A DNA stretch of 64,000 nt from Mycoplasmatales bacterium (GTDB lineage: Bacteria > Bacillota_I > Bacilli_A > Mycoplasmatales > G965222545), in NCBI GenBank assembly GCA_965222545.1, contig OZ244954.1, positions 160,639 through 224,638 of the forward strand. Reading direction: 5' to 3'. The translations under genes and the position numbers were made by a program. Below are positions 8,061 to 33,859 of this stretch, in pieces. The first letter of the stretch is position 1, and each line of letters begins with the position of its first letter. The notes beneath the pieces are model-generated. The model had not been told where the DNA came from and made no database searches. It saw nothing but the letters and a program-made list of their open reading frames with translations.

Positions 8061-8684
8061 ATGAATATTTTTAATAAAAAAAATCTTCCAAATTTTATAA
8101 CAGCAATAAGAATTATTATTGTTCTTATCATGGCTATATTAGGATCAATAATTGTAATGAGTAATAGTAAATATCCTATAAAACATAATTTATCAAATGA
8201 AACTAGTTATTTGTTTTTAATAATCATTATTTTATTAGTTATTGGCTATTTATCTGATTTTTTAGATGGTTATCTTGCAAGAAAATGAAAATGTGTTTCT
8301 CTATTTGGTAAAATAATGGACCCTATTGCAGATAAGTTATTAGCATTTGTAATGCTTATAATATTAGTTTCATTTGGATCAATAAATATGATAGTTCTTT
8401 GCCTTTTCTTGTTACGGAATTGAATTTTGGCAGGTTTTAGAATAAAAGCTGCAAGAGAAAAAAAAGTAATTGCTGCTAATATATATGGAAAAATAACAAC
8501 TATATTAATTGCTTTAACATTAATAATTAGTTCGCTTGTTATTTTATTTATTCCAAGCATTAGTTCATTATCATTATTAAATTCAGATTATTATTTAATT
8601 ATCAATTTAATATTTGTAATACCCTTATTTTTTTCATATTTTAGTTTATTTATTTACTTACGAAGCTTTTTATTGAAAAAATAA
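8061..8684 (+). CDS. pgsA: CDP-diacylglycerol--glycerol-3-phosphate 3-phosphatidyltransferase
   Basis: CDP-alcohol phosphatidyltransferase motif DFLDGYLARKW..GKIMDPIADK. Fragments 8061.. and 8427.. are in the same frame. Confidence 0.85.
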
Positions 8685-9304
8685 AATCTTTTTTTAATTG
8701 TAAGTGGTTTATTGCTAATTAAATAACTGTATATTTTTTTATCAGCAATTCAAGGTTTCATAATTGAAATTTTTATAAATAAAGGATATAAAGTTGCTAT
8801 TACTAAAAAAGTACATATTCCTTCAATTAAGTTAATAGGAAGAGCACTTGCAATTAATGATAATGAATAAATTAATGCATTCTTGTTTGCTCCATAAACT
8901 ATAAAATTAATTGGAAAATTAAATATAAAAATTGTAAATCCAACCACAAACCCAAGTATAGAACTATAAAAAACATTATTAACTAAATATTTTTTAAGTA
9001 TATTAATAATAAATATATAGACACTATATCAAATAAAATATAATATTGCCAATTCTCAATAATATAAGATACCACATATGATTGAATATAGAAGTGTTAA
9101 CAAAAACATTTGTTTTCATTCTGTTACTAAACAAATTAAAAATCAAATTCCCGTTACAAATTCTCACCCATCAAATGATGCATATAGACCAAATTTATAT
9201 TTTGATAATAATAAAAGTGATAAAAAAAGTGATAATTTAACTATTTGCAAAATAGCAATATGTTTATCATAAAAAATTAATTTTCAATTATTTTTTGATA
9301 ACAT
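8654..9304 (-). CDS. Polytopic membrane protein (possibly an ECF-transporter S component)
   Basis: Track ORF 8750..8947 extends both ways through TGA codons, from ATG at 9304 to TAA at 8654. About 6 hydrophobic helices. Both ends overlap neighbouring genes, so the boundaries are uncertain. Confidence 0.4.
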
Positions 9305-9918
9305 TATTTTCCTAAAGATGTTTTTCTAAGTTTAACTGCAAAATGATTTATCTTATTACTTTGTAACTGTTTTTCTGAAAATGAAGTAGAAAGCGGCTTT
9401 ATATTTGAAGGGATTAAATGATTTTTTATTTTTATATTGTCAGATCAAAAATATGTTTCTCATCAATAAACAAATGCTTTTTTATTAGATCAATTTGCAA
9501 TCACACTTTCATTAGTTTTTTCAGCATTTGCAATAATAAAATAATCATTAGCTTGTTTTGATGAATAATTTTTGACATCACTTAAAAATAATCCACTTAT
9601 ATCTTGTCGATATGTAAATAATATATTTTTAACAATTGGTTTATTATCAATATGATTATTTGTATTTTCATAACTTATTATTTTAAAAGTAGTATTAAAA
9701 TTAGAATTATAAGCAATAAAATCTAGATCATAATTATCTGTAATGTTATTATCATTTACCTCTGTATTACTATCAACAGTTAATTCAACCTTATAATTAT
9801 CAACATGATTACCTTGTTTACGTAAAATTATAATAATCGCAGATGATAACGCTACTAGTCCAATTGCAATAGTTCCTAAATATAAAAACTGTTTTTTATA
9901 TTTTATAAATATTTTCAT
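9277..9918 (-). CDS. Hypothetical signal-anchored protein
   Basis: Track ORF 9490..9918 reads through five TGA codons to TAA at 9277. N-terminal TM helix (LYLGTIAIGLVALSSAIIIIL). RBS AAAGGAAAC upstream. Confidence 0.45.
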
Positions 9919-9945
9919 ATGTTTCCTTTTTAAAGGATATTTACT

Positions 9946-9968
9946 AAAAAAACCCTTTTCAGGGTTTT
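9946..9968 (-). terminator. Rho-independent terminator (minus-strand sense)
   Basis: On the minus strand: AAAACCC-TGAAAA-GGGTTTT followed by TTT. It lies downstream of the Cys-rich small ORF. Confidence 0.6.
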
Positions 9969-10146
9969 AAATATTAAATTTGTAAATCAACCCAAAAATT
10001 TTACAAACAACAAGTGTCTGGCTTTACAGTTCTTTGGAGAGCAAACCTAATGGTTTTTCCTTGTATAAAAATATTATAAATTAATAACTAAAAAAAAATT
10101 AATAAATAATAAAATATTGAATTTTTTAAAAATTTAATAAAATATA

Positions 10147-10293
10147 TTATCTACATTTACAATTTGGTGAATCACCGGTTTTACAGCATCCACTATCATC
10201 TTTATTACAATTACATCTACAAGGTTCACATTTAGCGCATCCTTCTTTACAGCAGATTTCTTTGTTTTCACATCCACAATTACAATTTCCCAC
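10147..10293 (-). CDS. 48-aa cysteine-rich, metallothionein-like peptide
   Basis: Absent from the track because it is under 60 aa. GTG start lies 5 nt after AAAAGGAGG (10299-10307). Product is MGNCNCGCENKEICCKEGCAKCEPCRCNCNKDDSGCCKTGDSPNCKCR, with 14 Cys in CxC, CC and CxxC spacing and no aromatic or His residues. Third-position and AAA/GAA codon usage fit this frame better than the overlapping Val-rich frame. Confidence 0.6.
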   Translation of the reverse strand: MGNCNCGCENKEICCKEGCAKCEPCRCNCNKDDSGCCKTGDSPNCKCR

Positions 10294-10308
10294 AACAGCC
10301 TCCTTTTA

Positions 10309-10338
10309 ATATATTATATAATATATTTATTGATTCAA
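10309..10338 (-). promoter_or_regulatory. Candidate promoter of the Cys-rich ORF
   Basis: Minus strand reads TTGAAT (10333-10338), about 16 nt of spacer, then TAATAT/TATAAT. The -10 region sits inside an 18-bp perfect AT palindrome (10309-10326) that abuts the SD. Confidence 0.3.
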
Positions 10339-11072: not shown

Positions 11073-12053
11073 GTGAATAAAAATACAAAATTATTAAAAG
11101 CGTTAGCTAAAATGCAAAAGGATCTTGGGAAAGAAACATTAAAAATATTAGATGATAGTGATGATTCATTTAAACTTAATTCAATTTCTACTGGTTTAGC
11201 TGGTTTAGATCATATATTAGGGAACATGGGAATAGTTTGTGGAAGAATATATGAATTATATGGGCCAGAATCTAGTGGTAAAACTAGTTTAGCGTTATAT
11301 ATTATTGAATCATTTCAAAAACATAATAAAATATGTGCTTTCATTGATGCTGAACACTCATTAGATCCAAATTATTGCAAGAAAATTGGAATAAAAATTG
11401 ATGAATTATTAATTAGTCAACCAGATAGTGGTGAACATGCGTTTGATGTAATAGAAGCATTAATAAATTCAAAAGAAGTTAGCTTAATAGTTGTTGATAG
11501 TGTGGCAGCATTAACTCCACAAGGTGAAATTGACGGATCAATAAGTGATAAAAAAATTGGATTACAAGCTAGATTAATGGCCAAAGGATTAAGGAGAATA
11601 ACTGCTAATTTAGCAAAATCAAAATGTACAATTATTTTTATTAATCAGTTAAGAAGCAATATTGTTACTTTTATGGCAAATAGTGAAATAACACCCGGCG
11701 GAAGAGCCTTAAAGTTTTACAGTTCTGTTAGAATTGAAGTTAGAAGAGCAGAAAGAATATATCAAGGAACAAGTATAATTGGTCATAATATGAAAATAAA
11801 AATTGTAAAAAATAAAATTGCAGTTCCCTTTAAAATGACAAAAATGAAGATGATTTATGATAAAGGAATTGATAAACAAAATGATTTTATAGCTACAGCT
11901 ATTCTTAAAAAAAGAATTGTTCAAAAAGGACCCTTTTATTACTATGATGAAAAAAGATTAGCACAAGGTAAAGAAAATTTAATTAAATATTTAGATCAAA
12001 ATCCCAAAATTACAAACAAAATAATTGAAGATTTGTTAAATAAAAAAGCATAG
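11073..12053 (+). CDS. recA: Recombinase A
   Basis: GPESSGKTSLAL Walker A motif, IFINQLR and GGRALKFYSSVRIEVRR. GTG start. Confidence 0.95.
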   Translation: MNKNTKLLKALAKMQKDLGKETLKILDDSDDSFKLNSISTGLAGLDHILGNMGIVCGRIYELYGPESSGKTSLALYIIESFQKHNKICAFIDAEHSLDPNYCKKIGIKIDELLISQPDSGEHAFDVIEALINSKEVSLIVVDSVAALTPQGEIDGSISDKKIGLQARLMAKGLRRITANLAKSKCTIIFINQLRSNIVTFMANSEITPGGRALKFYSSVRIEVRRAERIYQGTSIIGHNMKIKIVKNKIAVPFKMTKMKMIYDKGIDKQNDFIATAILKKRIVQKGPFYYYDEKRLAQGKENLIKYLDQNPKITNKIIEDLLNKKA

Positions 12054-15847: not shown

Positions 15848-17743
15848 ATGATAAAAAAACGTAAGATTTGATTAATTGTAGGAGTAGTAGCAACACTTTC
15901 GTTAGGTGCAACACTTGGAATAATATTTGGTATTGTATTAAGAAAAAAATCTCAGCAAAATTTAATAGGGATTTCTTTTCCACATGGTTCTGGAATTGCT
16001 TTTAAAGACTCTCATAGTAAAGTTCCAAACGGAAAAAAAGATAAAGAAACAATACTTAATACAACACAATTTCCTGATTATACTAGTCAATATCAACATG
16101 AAAAAAAGCAACCCATAAATGATAACTGACATGGTTCAGTATTTACTGGATATTGAGGTTGAGATAATTATGATCAACCCTTTGATGGGCCAGATATTTT
16201 AAGACAAACTAATTTTACTAACTTTACATTTGGGTTTTTAAATGAACTTGGCAATGACGGAGATACATCAGATATGGATAGAGTAAATACAACATCAGGT
16301 GCAGGTTTTTTAGATCAAATTCAAGAAATCAAAGCACTTGGTGGAGCTGTAACACTTTCTTTTGGGGGATATACTGAACATGAAGGTTCATTTTTTAATT
16401 ATGCACCATCTATATATGTAATGTATGAAAAATTATTGGCACTTGTATTAGGTTATCAAATTTATTCACTAGATTTTGATTTTGAATTTCCACATGAATT
16501 AGCAGATGATAATAGAGCAAATTTAGCTATTGCTTTACAATTATTAAGAGCTGAAGTTAAAAATTTAACTGGTAGAAAAATGCAATATAGATTTACTGAA
16601 TCATATTGAGATGAAGATGAAATTTCAATGTTTAATAAATATATTGGAACTGATTTTATTTATAATGATATGTCATTAACAGCAATATCAGCAGATGGTG
16701 GTTCAAATGCAATTGAAAATGCAACAAATGACCTAAAAATGTTTAGAAAATATACACCTGCCTACAAAGATATGACAGATAAACAAATATATGAACATAT
16801 CGGAATTACAGCCAAAGTTGAAGATGATAAATATAATGAACCAGATAAATTTATACAATGAGCACTTACAAATCATCTTGCTTTAATAGGGTTATGAACA
16901 GTAACACATGATCATAAAAAGAATTCACCAAACGATTCAAATCCTGACCACCAAACTACAAAAAAAGGTAGTGATTATTATTATGTAAATAAATTTACTA
17001 ATGGGTTTCAAAATGTTCTTGAACAAACTAAACCCATCGCTATGCCTGGAGATGTTACAAATCAATATTGCTATTCACATAACAAAAGTAATACAGTTCT
17101 TAAATGAAATCTAGTAAAAGGAGCTACAACTTATGTTATAAAAGAAGGGGATAAAGTAATCACTACAGTTAATAGGACAACCGCTGGTATTAATTATTTA
17201 GATGGCACTGGTGGTACTGCTATTGGAAATCATGTATATTCTATTTATGCACAAAATTCTTTAGGTTTATCATCTAAACCAGCAAACGTTACAGTTAATA
17301 TAACAAAAAATGATCTTTCAACAAATATTGAATACTATGATAAAAACATCCCTTATCATAATAATAATTGAGTAGATAATTCAAAATATGTTCCTACTGT
17401 TCCTTATATTTATTATAAAGGTAATTTTTATCAAAACATAAATAGCGGAAAAGCTAACGGAATTAAAAGAAATGGTCTAAGCCCAGATAAAGATTTTACT
17501 AATTGAAAAGTAATGAAAAATATAAATTCTAATTTTGGATTATCAAATCAAAGAATTACCGATCTAAATAACTTTACATATGATAATTATGTTAAAGATA
17601 CAGATGGTATTCAAACAATTGCTTATAAAACAGGTGATAATACATTAGATCATCATCCTGATAATAATAAATTTATTAATCAATTTAACGGTTTAGGATT
17701 TAAAACAAATCCGGCAATTATTCTTAATAAAAACTTTCTTTAA
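15848..17743 (+). CDS. Membrane-anchored GH18 glycosidase (chitinase / endo-beta-N-acetylglucosaminidase family) with FN3-like, CBM5/12-like and unknown C-terminal modules, copy 1
   Basis: N-terminal TM helix. GH18 catalytic motif SLDFDFE at 16472-16486. FN3-like stretch (LKWNLVKGATTYVI..YSIYAQNSLG). CBM5/12-like stretch W..Y.P..PYIYYKGNFYQN. All fragments are in the same frame. Confidence 0.75.
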
Positions 17744-17860: not shown

Positions 17861-19753
17861 ATGACAAAAAAACGAAAAATTTGAATAATTGCTGGAGTTG
17901 CTGGAGCACTTACATTAGCGGCAACAGTTGGAATAATATTTGGTGTTGTATTAAGAAAAAAAATTCATGAAAATGCAAGTCCTGTTTTTAAACCTGCTGA
18001 TTGAACTGCTTTTAGAAATTCTAAAAGTGTAGTTCCAAATGGAACAGATGGTCAAGAAACAACACTTCCTACAACACAATTTCCTGATTATACTAGCCAA
18101 TATCAACATGAAAAAAAACAACCTTTAAATGATAATTGACATGGTCCAGTATTTACTGGATATTGAGGTTGAGATAATTATGATCAACCCTTTGATGCAG
18201 CAGATATTTTAAGACAAAGTAATTTTACTAATTTTACATTTGGGTTTTTAAATGAACTTGGTAATGACGGTGATACTGCTGATATGAAAAGAGTAAATAC
18301 TACATCAGGTGCAGGTTATTTAGATCAAATCCAAGAAATAAAAGCACTTGGTGGATCTGTAACATTTTCTTTTGGTGGAGCCACTCCTCACGAAGGTTCG
18401 TTTTATAATTACGCACCATCGACATATATAATGTATGAAAAATTATTAGCACTTGTATTAGGTTATAAAGTTTATTCATTAGATTTTGATTTTGAATATC
18501 CACATAATATAACAGATGGAGAAATACGTCATTTAGCTGCTGCTTTACAATTATTAAGAACTCAAGTTAAAAATTTAACTGGTAAAAATATGCAATATAG
18601 ATTTACTCAATCATATTTTGAAGGAAGTGAAATGGATATACTTAATCAATATATAGGTACAGATTTTATTTATAATGATATGTCATTAACAAGTATCTCA
18701 AGTAATAATGATTCGTCTGCAATTTCCCATGCAATTCAAGATCTAGCAGCTTTTAGAAATGTAAATGCTTACAGCAAGATGTCCGACCTCCAAATATATG
18801 AACATTTAGGAATTACAGCTAAAGTTGAAAATGATAGTTATAATAAACCTGATGAATTTGCTGCATGAGCAATTGAAAACCGCCTTGGGTTAATAGGATT
18901 ATGAACAGTTACACATGATCATAAAGAGAACTCACCAAATGATTTAAATCCAGGACATGAAACTACTGGAAAAGATAGTGATTTTTATTATGTAAATAAA
19001 TTTACTAATGGTTTTCAAAATCATATTGAACAAGCTAAACCCACCGCTAAACCAGATGATGTTGCTGGATTGTATTGTTATTCACATAACAAAAGTAATA
19101 CAGTTCTTAAGTGAAATCCAGTAAAAGGAGCAACAACTTATGTAATAAAAGAAGGCGAAAAAGTTATTACTACAGTTAATAGGACAACCGCTGGTATTAA
19201 TTATTTAGATGGAACGGGTGGTGTTGCTATTGGAAATCATGTATATTCTGTCTATGCACAAAATTCTTTAGGTTTATCTTCGAAACCAATAGATATTAAA
19301 GTTAATATAACAAAAGATGATCTATCAACAAATGTTGAATATTATGATAAAAATATTCCTTATCATAATAACAATTGAGTAGATGATTCAAAATATGTTC
19401 CTACTATTCCTTATATTTATTATAAAGGTAATTTTTATCAAAACATAAATAGTGGAAAAGCTGATGGAATTAAAAGAAATGGTCCAAGTCCAGATAAGGA
19501 TTCTGCTAATTGAAAAGTTATGGAAGATCCAAATAATTCTAATTTTGGATTATCAAAACAAAGAATTAATGATCTAAAAAACTTTACATATGATAATTAT
19601 GTTAAAGATACAGATGGCATTCAAACAATTGCTTATGAAAAAGATAAAAACACTCTAATTAATCATCCTGATAATAATAAATTTATCAATCAACTTAATG
19701 GTTTAGGATTTAAAACAAATCCGGCAATTATTCTTAATAAAAACTTTCTTTAA
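17861..19753 (+). CDS. Membrane-anchored GH18 glycosidase, tandem paralog, copy 2
   Basis: Same architecture as copy 1, with SLDFDFE at 18482-18496. Fragments 18284.. and 19520.. share the frame with ATG 17861. Confidence 0.75.
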
Positions 19754-23600: not shown

Positions 23601-24109
23601 TTAATGCAGGTGAACGAATATCTGGAATAAGTGCGTTACCAATGGGATTAGTGGGAATAAGTGAAGGCGCTCTTCCGTTTGCGTTTAGAACTCCAGGAAA
23701 ATGTGCACTTGCAAATATTTTAGGTTGTGGTGTAGCTGGAGGATTAGTTGCTATCTTTAAAATTCATTTCTTTGGAGGTTTAGGTTCACCATTAGCTGTT
23801 ATTGTCGGATATATTGCTAATAATCATAATGTTCTAAGTATATTAACGGCATTTGAATGGATCTTTTCGGTTTTAGCTGGAGTTATGATTTCTGCTACAA
23901 TTTATACACTACTTCGTAAAAAAGATTTAAATAATATTAAAAATTATAATTTAATGAAACAAAATGAAATAAAACGTTTAGTAAGACTTGGTGTTAATGG
24001 TAAAATAAATATTTTTATTTTTAAACAAAAAAGAGGATGTAGAAAATTTGTTAAAAATATTCCTTATTTTATAAATCCAAGAAATTGATTTCACATTCCT
24101 GAGTTCTAA
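20696..24109 (+). CDS. Fructose-family PTS polyprotein IIA-IIB-(N-terminal half IIC)-IIB'-IIC
   Basis: Five track fragments (20696, 21191, 22394, 22940, 23306) all start at 2 mod 3. I checked every junction and the only interruptions are TGA. IIA has AIPHA, IIB has GISACAAGIAHTYMA, and the final IIC has DLGGPINKTA and GISEGALPFAF. TAA at 24107. Confidence 0.8.
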
Positions 24110-24117
24110 GAAGACAT

Positions 24118-26574
24118 ATGAAAAAAAAGATTCATCTAATCCCGCATACACATTGAGACAAGGAATGATATTTTCCGGACCTAATTTCTGATAATCTTTT
24201 TTCTCATAATTTTAATTTAATAACAAGACTTTATAAAAATAATAAGTTAAAGTTAAAAAATTATTTATTTGATGGTCAACTTTCTTTAATTGATGATTTA
24301 CTATCAAATCAACCTGAACTGAGAAATTTAGTTCAAGAATTAGTAGATAAAAAATATATTTATTTAGGTGCTTGATATTCACAACCTGATTTTTATAATT
24401 CAAGTGCTGAGACAACATTTAGAAATATTCTTTATGGTAAACAACTTATAAGTCAATTTAATTTTAAAACTAAAACTATATATTGTCCTGACTCTTTTGG
24501 TTTTAATAATAATTTACCACAAATTTTTAGATCTTTAGGATTTGAAAATTTTATTTTTTGAAGAGGTATGAAAAAAGAAGATGCATTAGATAATGCCTTT
24601 TTTAATTGAGTAGGAATTGATGATACTAAAATAATGTCTTATTGTTACTCAAAAGGTTATTATCCATTTGGTGCAATTTATCCATATAATAATATAAATA
24701 ATCACAATCTAGATACAAGTGCAAAAAAATTTACAAAAGATGCAAAACCATTAGTAGATGAAATATTTACAAGATTAAAAAATAATAATAATGAATGTAT
24801 TATTCCTTTAGGAGGAGATCAAGCACCATATGTTTATAAAGCATATGATTTAATAAATAAAGTAAATAAATTTGATAAAAATTATAACTGACAATGAAGT
24901 ACTCTTGATAATTTTTTTAATAATAAATCGCCCAATAAAATAATCACAGGTGATTTAAATTACCCATATGATTCTAGAATACACAGAACAATTGGCTCTA
25001 GTAGGGTAGACATTAAAAAGTTATTTAGAAAATGTGAAAATAAATTATATTATCATTTAGAACCATTACAAATTTATTATATGCAAATAGATGCTAATTA
25101 TAATCCTAACGTTACAAGGAGAAGAATATTAAGAATAATTTTAAAATCACAAGCTCATGATTCGTTAGGGGGGTGTAATTCTGATATTGTTAATAGACAA
25201 ATATTTGATCGACTTCAAAATGCATTCATTATGTTACAAGGAGAAATAGATTATATTATGAAAAAATTATCTAATTTTTATAAAATCCAAAATAACGAAA
25301 TTCTACTTATTAATACAGCTCCATTTGTTAACAATGTTAGTACTAGGTTTTTTATAAGCAATAAAAGTAAAAAACCATTTAATAAAAAACTTAATGGTAT
25401 AGAAATTATACAAATTGCACCTTCTGTACAAGAGCAAACGGGAACAAGTAAATACTGAAAACATTATTTAGAGCTTATCTCTAGAAAAGTTCCACCATTT
25501 ACCCATAAAATTGTTAAATTTAGTGATTTTAAAGATATACCTATTAGTAATGTTGATGTTGAACATTCAATTAAATTAAAAACCACTGATAATAAAATAA
25601 CATTATTGTTTAAAAATAAGATAATTATTGATAACATACTAGAATTTATAGTAAATAATGATTATGGAGATTTATATGATTATTCACCAAAAAGAATTGG
25701 TGAAAAGGGTAAATGTCTTAATGCAGATTTTGTATTAAAAGAAAAATTAAATACTCAAACTTATTCACAATTTATTTTTAAATTTGTAATTTTAAAAGAT
25801 AAGGTAAAGGGAAAATTGAGAATTAAAATTCGTCACATTGATGAAAAAGTATACGTAAGACTATCGATAAATAATAGGTCAAAACTTATAAAATTAAGTA
25901 CAAATTGATCTATTAATGATTTTGAAAATATTTCCTTTCACCAACATCTTGCAATAAAACCTTATGTTGAAAATCCAATAAAAGATTCATTAAAAAGTAA
26001 TTATCAAGAATATTTATCATCATATACAATGTTTAATGAATTATTATCAATAAAAACTACCGATAATTATTTTAATATTATCACTAATTCAGCTAACGAA
26101 TTTAAAATTAACCATAATCGTCTTAATATTACATTATTTAGATCTGTCAATTACTTAGGTAAAAATGATTTAGCGTGAAGACCAGGAAGAGCAAGTGGTA
26201 TTACTGGACAAATGATAAAAACACCAGATGGACTTTTAAGAAAAAAACTTACATATAATTTTGACATAAGTTTTAATAAATCACCTGAAAAAGTTTATAA
26301 CGATTATCATTTTGCTGGTTCTGCTTATGTAAATAACGAATTTTTAAATCCATTAAATTCAATGTTTGATAATTTTATATTAAATGATATAGTTTATAAA
26401 AATAACATTAATTATAAATGTCCAAATTTAAAGGAAAATTATATAATTTCTGCATTTTATTATAATGAAGGTAAAGTATATTTTAGATATGCAAATCAAA
26501 GTAAACCACAAAATAATTTAAGAAAATATGAAATTGTAACAAAGGTTAAAAAAGTTAAAACTAGTTATGAATAA
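24118..26574 (+). CDS. GH38 alpha-mannosidase (MngB-like)
   Basis: N-terminal IHLIPHTHWDKEWYF, GAWYSQPD and CPDSFGF motifs. Five fragments in one frame. Confidence 0.85.
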
Positions 26575-27922
26575 ATATCATGAAAATTTTTATTGAGGAT
26601 CAGCTTTTAGTGGACCACAAACTGAAAATAAATTTTCAAATGATGGTAGTGGATATTCAATATGAGACTATTGATTTAAAAATAAACCTGAAAAATTTTA
26701 CAAACAAACATTTGTTAAAAATGATTTTTATAAAAATTTTAAAGGTGATATAAAAATTGCAAAGGATTTAAATTTTAATTCATTAAGAACATCAATTCAA
26801 TGATCTAGACTAATTCCAGATGGTAAAAATGTTAACCTAAAAGCAGTTGATTTTTATAATAAATTAATTGATGAAATGCTTAAACATAATATTGAACCAT
26901 TTATAAATTTACATCATTTTGATTTACCGTGATTTGCACAAGAAAAAGGAGGATGAGAAAACCGGGAAGTTATTGATAATTTTGCTTTTTTTGCTAAAAC
27001 ATGTTTTAAATTATTTGGCAAAAAGGTTAAAAAATGATTCACTTTTAATGAACCTGTTGTAACTCAAGAAGCCGGTTATTTATATGGATTACATTTTCCG
27101 CTAGTTCAAGATTTACAAAGATCTTTAAATGTTATGTGAAATCAAATTTTAGCACATAAAAAAGCAGTTAAGGAGTTTAGGAATCAAAAAATACAAGGTG
27201 ATATAGGAATTATTTTAAATATTACACCAATAATTTCAAGAAGTGATAGTAAAGAAGATATGTTAGCTCAAAAATGAGCAGAAATATTTAACTATAGTTG
27301 TTATTTAGATCCAATAGTTAAAGGAAGTTTTCCGCAAGCATTAATTGATGAAGCTAAAGTAAAAAAATATCTTTGAGATATTAAAGATGAGGATTGAGAT
27401 CTTATTAAAGATAATCCTATTAGTTTTTTAGGTATTAATTATTATAATCCACGAAGAGTAAAAGCGGGAAATAAGAAGATAAACAAGCAATTATTACCTA
27501 ATCCATATTACTATACTACATATAAAAAAAAGGATGCTGTTTATAATAAATCTAGAGGATGAGAAATATATCCTAAAGCATTGTATTTAGCAATGAAAAA
27601 TATTCAAAATAATTACGATAATATTAAATTTTACATTGCTGAAAACGGAATTGGTATTCATAACGAAGAACAATTTAAAGATGAAAGTGGAGTAATTCAA
27701 GATAATTATCGTATTAATTTTATAAAAGATCATCTTTTTTGAGTTAGAAAAGCCATTGATGAAGGAGCAAATTGTATTGGATATCATATGTGAACATATA
27801 TCGATAATTGATCGTGAACAAATGCATATAAAAATCGTTACGGTTTTTATGAATTAGATTTAAAAACTAAAAAAAGACACAAAAAACTTTCTGCTGATCT
27901 TTGAATATCGATAATAAAATAA
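26567..27922 (+). CDS. GH1 (6-phospho-)beta-glycosidase
   Basis: FYWGSAFSGPQTE, acid/base motif TFNEP and nucleophile motif YIAENGIG. The start overlaps the GH38 stop by 8 nt. Confidence 0.85.

Positions 27923-32350: not shown

Positions 32351-33859
<1,509 letters not shown>

Follow-up and report, generated by a model that had tools for sequence, protein, structure and literature searches.

A small open reading frame (ORF) of 48 codons, 14 of which specify cysteine, lies on the minus strand of the 64,000-nucleotide stretch of DNA analysed here (contig OZ244954.1, positions 160,639 to 224,638; referred to below as the window), which originates from a member of the Mycoplasmatales and has a G+C content of ∼ 23%. 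On the same strand the ORF is followed by a leader RNA that ends in a terminator hairpin, and then by two genes for membrane-associated proteins. One homologue of the ORF product was identified, a 47-residue protein designated P0121 that is encoded on an 857-bp metagenome contig (L003), and comparison of the two loci shows that the ORF is a genuine gene, for whose product metal binding of the metallothionein type is the best available reading. The features of the ORF and of its upstream region are as follows.

10147..10293, minus strand: small ORF, GTG start to TAA stop, 48 codons, product MGNCNCGCENKEICCKEGCAKCEPCRCNCNKDDSGCCKTGDSPNCKCR
10299..10304, minus strand: Shine–Dalgarno (SD) sequence AGGAGG, 5 nt before the GTG; in L003 AGGAGG lies 7 nt before an ATG
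10313..10318, minus strand: probable −10 box TATAAT, which aligns with a TATAAT in L003
10332-10337, minus strand: −35-like TTGAAT, separated from the TATAAT by a 14-nt spacer; not conserved in L003

The cysteine-rich ORF and its homologue

Cysteine makes up 29% of the small-ORF product, compared with a background of 1.02% in the long ORFs of the window (14,393 codons, translation table 4), in agreement with the statement in the initial annotation that Cys codons are otherwise rare in this genome. Elsewhere in the window, open 48-codon stretches in all six frames contain no more than 6 Cys codons each, and no more than 9 are reached in stop-containing frames. Likewise, first-order Markov simulations of 64 kb sequences (n = 30) gave maxima of 6–9 Cys per 48-codon stretch. 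Codon log-odds also favoured the Cys frame, at +9.6 bits versus +0.4 bits for the Val-rich +1 frame, and the Cys frame scored this highly although Cys is rare in the codon training set. Its synonymous codons are the genome-preferred ones throughout (AAA, GAA, AAT, GAT, AGA, TGT), as the earlier preference for this frame over the Val-rich one had supposed, and the ORF itself is free of TGA codons.

The encoded peptide has a mass of 5 kDa and contains 8 basic and 7 acidic residues, with many Lys residues placed beside Cys, and it is devoid of His, Phe, Tyr and Trp. The cysteines follow the pattern CxCxC-x5-CC-x3-CxxCxxCxCxC-x6-CC-x7-CxC, and neither a signal peptide nor a hydrophobic segment is present. 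The exact protein does not occur in a collection of ∼ 15 billion predicted proteins and is therefore unannotated; ORF sequence, product and this look-up together agree with the earlier description of an unannotated, 14-cysteine ORF on the minus strand. The case illustrates an annotation gap, in that functional genes of 48 codons escape gene callers.

A HMMER scan of 1.84 billion cluster-representative proteins returned exactly one match, P0121, which is 68% identical over its full length (E 5.3e-9; pairwise BLASTP E 1e-18). The gene for P0121 is carried by L003, a contig of the ENA metagenome assembly ERZ23490334. The same assembly also contains, on contig L001, the nearest relative of the RecA protein encoded in the window (61% identity). 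L003 and L001 were taken to represent one organism on the basis of their shared sample, their G+C fractions (0.21 and 0.26), their use of TGA for Trp and the matching proportions of synonymous differences (pS) between each contig and the window. Since the nearest RecA is only 61% identical, no close relative has been sequenced, and the two genomes compared here are deeply diverged.

In the alignment with P0121 all 14 of the 14 Cys residues are kept with exact spacing, while 15 of the 33 other positions differ (chance probability 0.0014), the remaining 18 (55%) being identical. Four of the Cys codons do differ between the two genomes, but only synonymously (TGT versus TGC). For the small ORF in frame 0, pS is 0.55 and the proportion of non-synonymous differences (pN) is 0.22, giving a pN/pS of 0.41, which compares with a pS of 0.58, a pN of 0.26 and a pN/pS of 0.45 for RecA between the window and L001. 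The excess of synonymous over non-synonymous differences is significant (Fisher test, p = 0.004), and the differences at codon positions 1, 2 and 3 number 11, 10 and 19, respectively. By these measures the peptide is constrained like RecA and has diverged for equally long. Because the synonymous divergence equals that of RecA and the codon usage is native, vertical inheritance is favoured. A recent transfer, or the transfer from a host for which a test had been suggested, is thus unsupported, all the more so as the likeness to animal metallothioneins is not significant (see below).

The alternative reading frames do not share this behaviour. In L003 a TAA stop interrupts the Val-rich +1 frame, whose pN/pS is > 1, and this frame was rejected as the coding frame on both grounds. 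The antisense frame that shares its wobble positions with the Cys frame has a pN/pS of 0.53, as expected from the overlap; it was rejected because no start codon in the window would give it more than ∼ 15 codons. Orthologues that conserve the Val-rich frame, or that do not keep the Cys codons, had been named beforehand as an outcome that would refute the gene; in L003 every Cys codon is retained and the Val-rich frame is broken.

The translation signals of the small ORF are also preserved. AGGAGG occurs nine times in the 128 kb given by both strands of the window, and only the copy upstream of the small ORF precedes a start codon. Moreover, the 16S rRNA has the complementary anti-SD sequence CCUCCU at its 3′ end. 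The start position is common to both genomes, as GTG in the window and ATG in L003. Together with the retention of the SD sequence in L003, these data uphold the strong ribosome-binding site noted in the initial annotation. Of the TTGAAT/TATAAT promoter proposed at the same time, the −10 part stands, in that a TATAAT box located 8–9 nt upstream of the SD sequence is kept in L003, where the flanks are otherwise ∼ 56% identical to those of the window, roughly the background level of aligned AT-rich DNA. The −35 part does not, given the 14-nt spacer and the lack of conservation of TTGAAT. A promoter scan did not call the pair and found no more promoter-like sites in this DNA than in shuffled sequences (18 as against 21.2 ± 4.3). 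A perfect 20-bp AT-only palindrome (AATATATTAT abutting ATAATATATT, 10308-10327) overlaps the −10 box, at which place another inverted repeat, TAATTATT-N9-AATAATTt, is found in L003. The palindrome could be an operator, but it was set aside as a candidate because AT-only DNA may well produce such a repeat by chance and because L003 does not keep it in this form.

An open frame that arose by chance, or a TGT-rich repeat element at the DNA level that yields no product, would be consistent with promoter and terminator scans that do not rise above chance and with a source record in which the protein is neither annotated nor called. Neither would be expected to show a Cys count far beyond the simulations, frame-specific substitutions, a conserved start, SD sequence and stop, and a homologue at the protein level, and on this evidence the idea that there is no gene here can be considered essentially refuted. 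As judged from the two genomes, the small ORF is a real and conserved gene whose Cys frame is under purifying selection; the homologue, the substitution pattern and the conserved start and SD sequence all point to the self-standing small-protein gene that had been predicted.

Further members of the family were sought. Word-indexed protein searches with the peptide alone and with the two-member alignment produced no member beyond P0121, and scans of the two-member alignment against GTDB species genomes, JGI metagenomes and IMG/VR found no relative. When the Cys spacing alone was used as a DNA pattern against metagenomes, it was swamped, among the matches listed, by (TGY)n simple repeats.

Genomic setting and the neighbouring leader RNA

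The long ORFs of the window contain 154 TGA codons versus 9 TGG codons, and ORFs that are fragmented under translation table 11 become long and contiguous under table 4, so that UGA is read as Trp. The best matches to the RecA protein (gene at 11073-12053) are 61% and 60% identical and both derive from metagenome contigs, whereas the best named match, from Mycoplasma sp. OR1901, shows 48% identity; a RecA pattern scan of GTDB species genomes found no relative. The organism is a deep-branching mollicute that uses TGA for Trp and has a genome of ∼ 641 kb.

The small ORF opens a minus-strand block (8654-10293) that is flanked on one side by pgsA and on the other by the gene upstream of recA. The other components of the block are listed here.

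10005..10078, minus strand: aptamer-like part of the leader RNA, including a TATAAT of its own (10073-10078); assigned to the downstream operon and not to the small ORF
10017-10045, minus strand: invariant leader core of 29 nt, TTTGCTCTCCAAAGAACTGTAAAGCCAGA, which matches L003 at 97% identity, compared with ∼ 56% in the flanks
9988-9997, minus strand: conserved leader segment UUUUGGGUUG, kept in L003
9946..9968, minus strand: intrinsic-terminator hairpin AAAACCCU-GAAA-AGGGUUUU followed by a U-run, kept in L003 at 748-775
9304..9918, minus strand: first downstream gene, 204 residues (table 4 translation), N-terminal transmembrane segment
8654..9304, minus strand: second downstream gene, 216 residues, multi-pass membrane protein

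The 204-residue protein has no match in Pfam, NCBIfam, PADLOC or the PDB, and the 216-residue protein has only a weak, sub-threshold match to DUF3561 and none in NCBIfam, PADLOC or the PDB. In the relative, pgsA, a gene for a 194-residue protein, recA and a permease gene are contiguous (positions 529-2058 of L001 were compared), and the small-ORF module is found on the other contig, L003, together with a co-oriented upstream gene. In L003, too, an ORF starts in the corresponding position behind the leader. The order of small ORF, leader and next gene is thus kept in both genomes while the surroundings differ, which indicates that the module moved as a unit. FeoA and FeoB, to whose proximity attention had been drawn, are genuine in the window, but the link is not conserved: the relative's module lies in a different context.

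The leader and its terminator span positions 9946-10078 (minus strand) in the window and 642-775 in L003, and the leader core is single-copy in the window. A helix of the leader reads ACAAG/CUUGU in one genome and UAUAC/GUAUA in the other, which is a compensatory change. RNAalifold recovered leader helices supported by four compensatory pairs in the two sequences, and the z-scores of the single-sequence minimum free energy (MFE) are ∼ 0. At the Rfam gathering threshold nothing matched in the leader region. Under relaxed settings both sequences gave full-length alignments to RF01689 (AdoCbl-II) that remained below threshold, with 23.2 bits for L003 (E 0.002-0.01) and 17.6 bits for the window (E 0.11), the gathering score being 36.5. 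The leader core ACUGUAAAGCCAGA aligns in part to the RF01689 consensus ACgGUaAaAGUCcGA, and another sequence stands in place of the GCCAC strand of the B12 box. The leader resembles AdoCbl-II in its alignment to the full model, in an enclosing helix with a compensatory change and in a terminator placed upstream of membrane proteins; it differs from AdoCbl-II in its scores below gathering, its replaced GCCAC strand and its MFE z-scores near zero, the comparison being based on two sequences.

The conserved segment UUUUGGGUUG has two alternative potential partners, CUCCAAAG in the core and AAACCC in the terminator, and mutually exclusive pairings of the usual kind may arise among CUCCAAAG, UUUUGGG and the terminator arm AAACCC. 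The hairpin at 9946-9968 probably serves the leader as its expression platform. The leader itself is best regarded as a riboswitch-like element of uncertain class, and it may be a mollicute riboswitch of a divergent or new class. As a riboswitch candidate in a group with few known, it is a separate lead in its own right.

The same hairpin had been assigned in the initial annotation to the small ORF as its own terminator. Hairpin and U-run do exist, though a terminator scan did not call them, but they lie ∼ 180 nt past the stop codon of the small ORF and end the conserved leader of the downstream operon. In L003 the small ORF is followed after 25 nt by a hairpin and U-run of its own (AAAACCC-UAU-GGGUUUU, 585-605), so that the order there is small ORF, terminator, TATAAT, conserved leader, second terminator and next ORF. 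This first terminator has no counterpart in the window. The stem of the post-ORF terminator in L003 (AAAACCC/GGGUUUU) is nearly the same as that of the leader terminator (AAACCCU/AGGGUUU), which suggests either a duplication in that lineage or a loss in the lineage of the window. With a strong terminator and a new TATAAT between them, the small ORF and the leader are separate transcription units in L003.

This arrangement bears on two other explanations. The first is that the ORF is a Cys-sensing leader peptide, in which ribosome stalling at the 14 Cys codons controls the terminator at 9946-9968 and through it the operon, as in amino-acid attenuators and the polycysteine upstream ORFs of mycobacteria. 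In favour of this scheme, a terminator and a same-strand operon follow the ORF in the window after ∼ 180 nt, and there is a weak match to Phe_leader (16.3 bits, E 1.7). In L003, though, a terminator and a new −10 box intervene before the leader, and even in the window the stop codon is distant from the alternative hairpins across the 180-nt gap, so that a Cys-codon attenuator was rejected for want of coupling. It was also rejected because conservation extends beyond the Cys codons: a sensor that counts codons would need neither the 55% identity of the non-Cys residues (18/33, pN/pS 0.41) nor the exact Cys spacing, and the Cys codons are dispersed in metallothionein-like motifs rather than clustered. 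A sensing role is consequently highly improbable.

The second is that the peptide is an accessory of the adjacent operon, for example one that holds cobalt/corrinoid or another cargo of a putative transporter formed by the two membrane proteins, and not a metal buffer of general use. The gene order kept despite different genomic contexts speaks for such a link, as do the full-length, sub-threshold matches of both leader sequences to a class-II cobalamin riboswitch. Set against these are the separation of the ORF from the leader in L003, a cobalamin assignment that is below the Rfam threshold and is missing the GCCAC 'B12 box' strand, and downstream proteins that match nothing. Cys-only peptides are not known to take part in the handling of corrinoids. 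An accessory role is thus unlikely. The same can be said of the larger possibility that a previously unrecognized, eukaryote-like family of Cys-only metallothioneins, a new and possibly cobalamin-derived riboswitch and two novel membrane proteins under its control make up a compact module for metal/corrinoid acquisition and buffering, which we consider doubtful.

Elsewhere in the window a complete 16S rRNA gene is present at 32352-33859. The remaining 30 kb of the window contain no 23S or 5S rRNA gene and the genes after the 16S rRNA gene are on the opposite strand, so the rRNA genes appear to be unlinked. Two tandem paralogues (15848-17743 and 17861-19753) encode proteins of ∼ 630 residues with near-identical, signal- or lipoprotein-like N-termini (M-x-KKRKIW-x-I-x-GV...) and are probably a surface-protein family. 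At 24085-27922, genes for an 829-residue GH38-type α-mannosidase-like protein and a 451-residue 6-phospho-β-glucosidase-like protein, both recognized from N-terminal motifs alone, are flanked by components resembling a phosphotransferase system. For a 0.64-Mb genome, a set of sugar-utilization genes such as this is unusual.

Possible functions of the peptide

With a length of 48 residues and a Cys content of 29%, the small-ORF peptide falls within the mass and Cys range of the metallothionein class as defined by Kagi and Binz (< 10 kDa, ∼ 15–30% Cys). It also has the motifs of that class, namely CxC, CC and CxxC, and lacks both His and aromatic residues; P0121 shows the very same pattern. The composition is thus that of a classical metallothionein, as had been recognized at the outset. 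An AlphaFold model of the peptide was of low confidence (predicted local distance difference test score, pLDDT, 60; predicted template modelling score, pTM, 0.32). The lack of a confident fold is what would be expected of a peptide templated by metal, but it is weak evidence because the alignment comprised only two rows.

A number of observations weigh against a metallothionein. At E ≤ 10, neither member of the family matched any Pfam family, including PF00131, PF02069 and PF05522, although human MT2A, SmtA and sea-urchin MTA were detected as positive controls at 75–81 bits; a lobster metallothionein used as a further control had no Pfam match, and so the crustacean family is not covered by Pfam. 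NCBIfam gave no match for either member, and PDB searches, run both with the single sequence and with a profile built from the two members, found no metallothionein, lobster and crab chains included, at E ≤ 10. The profile searches against metallothionein families that had been recommended therefore came back empty, with the controls detected. In addition, the family consists of two members from uncultured organisms, such that the constraint on the Cys pattern is derived from one pairwise comparison. Beside the small ORF there is no conserved gene for a metal-responsive regulator, for an efflux pump or for any other function in metal handling, and the relative does not share the proximity of FeoAB. 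Finally, a Cys-rich peptide could serve redox, iron–sulphur (Fe-S) or other chemistry.

Of these chemistries, a role as Fe-S cluster carrier or thiol redox buffer finds some correspondence in the sequence itself. The run C19-x2-C22-x2-C25-x3-C29 resembles the CxxCxxCxxxC ligand set of a [4Fe-4S] cluster, GCAKCEPCR resembles the SCGKCxPCR of NuoF-type proteins and is kept in P0121 as GCKKCDPCRCNC, and the 4Fe-4S motif of a formate dehydrogenase β subunit was retrieved from the PDB as a weak match that is not significant (E 1.6). The fourth Cys, though, is followed by Asn and not Pro, no Fer4-type Pfam family was matched at E ≤ 10 and there is no hydrophobic or aromatic core. On the first two of these grounds a ferredoxin-type [4Fe-4S] peptide was rejected. 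Moreover, one cluster would leave ten further invariant Cys residues, in CC and CxC motifs, unexplained. Taken together, these points make an Fe-S or redox function quite unlikely.

The position of a small Cys-rich peptide beside two uncharacterized membrane or exported proteins might also suggest an exported disulphide-rich toxin or bacteriocin, or the precursor of a ribosomally synthesized and post-translationally modified peptide (RiPP), with the neighbouring membrane proteins providing export or immunity. The peptide, however, shows neither a signal peptide nor a double-glycine leader, and it lacks a hydrophobic stretch; none of the adjacent genes encodes a maturase, a radical-SAM enzyme or an ATP-binding cassette (ABC) exporter; no SCIFF-type or other NCBIfam match and no PADLOC or PHROG match was obtained; and AlphaFold predicts no knotted or compact fold. 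A SCIFF/RiPP precursor was rejected on the lack of an NCBIfam match and of radical-SAM or other enzyme domains in the neighbours, and a toxin or RiPP in general is improbable.

Metal binding of the metallothionein type thus remains the best available reading of the peptide, to which, on its composition, we would give an even chance of being correct. The small ORF is a genuine and probably efficiently translated gene of an undescribed mollicute lineage that reads UGA as Trp, and on this reading its cytosolic, Cys-only product would use its 14 invariant thiolates to enclose soft metal ions (Zn2+/Cd2+ or Cu+) in metal–thiolate clusters, which could act as a sink for buffering or detoxification. 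By analogy with M3Cys9 and M4Cys11 clusters, ∼ 4–5 divalent ions or 6–8 Cu(I) ions might be bound. The retention of a peptide with 29% Cys in a genome of ∼ 641 kb suggests, by an argument from cost, that its function is needed. If the reading is correct, minimal host-dependent bacteria (∼ 0.64 Mb) would invest in thiolate-based metal buffering. The peptide is a very small and readily synthesized test object.

Comparison with known metallothioneins

The initial annotation had likened the Cys spacing of the peptide to that of crustacean or vertebrate metallothioneins. Composition-adjusted BLASTP against a crab metallothionein, whose sequence was entered by hand, gave an E value of 0.25, and Smith–Waterman shuffle z-scores against nine metallothioneins, also entered by hand, did not exceed 3.7 (blue crab; 1.9–3.7 for the crustacean proteins), compared with 16.9 for P0121. 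Neither value is significant, there being in addition no Pfam or PDB match, and the animal-like spacing is therefore no more than a Cys/Lys-rich composition yields. Neither significant similarity to the crustacean family nor its two-domain pattern of 9+9 Cys was found.

With the eukaryote-type Cys-only metallothioneins in general (vertebrate PF00131, crustacean and echinoderm) the peptide nevertheless shares a mass of ∼ 5–6 kDa, a Cys content of ∼ 30%, CxC, CC and CxxC motifs with Lys flanking Cys, the absence of His and aromatic residues and the absence of a predicted stable fold without metal. It differs in having no detectable homology to them and in carrying its 14 Cys in one stretch rather than in a two-domain layout of 9+11 or 9+9. 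The gene also differs from its eukaryote-type counterparts in its bacterial SD sequence, its native AT-rich codons and its apparent vertical inheritance.

SmtA/BmtA proteins (PF02069, including Pseudomonas PflQ2 MT and PmtA) are, like the small-ORF peptide, small, bacterial and Cys-rich, and are presumed to buffer Zn/Cd. SmtA contains His and aromatic residues and has a zinc-finger-like fold, whereas the peptide has no His or aromatic residues; correspondingly, the SmtA control matched PF02069 with 75 bits and the peptide did not match. Both SmtA and MymT use His, unlike the classical Cys-only peptides of animals.

MymT has fewer Cys residues than the small-ORF peptide and contains His. The two are unrelated in sequence and no NCBIfam, Pfam or HMMER link connects them. 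MymT, the copper metallothionein of Mycobacterium tuberculosis, is a lineage-restricted protein of ∼ 5 kDa that was missed by annotation and binds Cu(I) via Cys motifs (in part from PMC7387436), and in its size, its bacterial origin, its restriction to one lineage and its having been missed by annotation it is a close parallel to the peptide described here. Few bacterial metallothioneins are known, and as of 2020 SmtA and MymT were the only ones whose function had been studied (PMC7387436). A full-text literature search for metallothioneins and mollicutes produced host metallothioneins only, in keeping with the earlier remark that none had been described in this group. Judged by composition, the small-ORF product is a first candidate for a metallothionein-type metal binder in mollicutes, and with P0121 it forms a new two-member family of Cys-only metallothionein-like peptides that is unrelated in sequence to the known metallothionein families and that, if it does bind metal, would have evolved independently of them.

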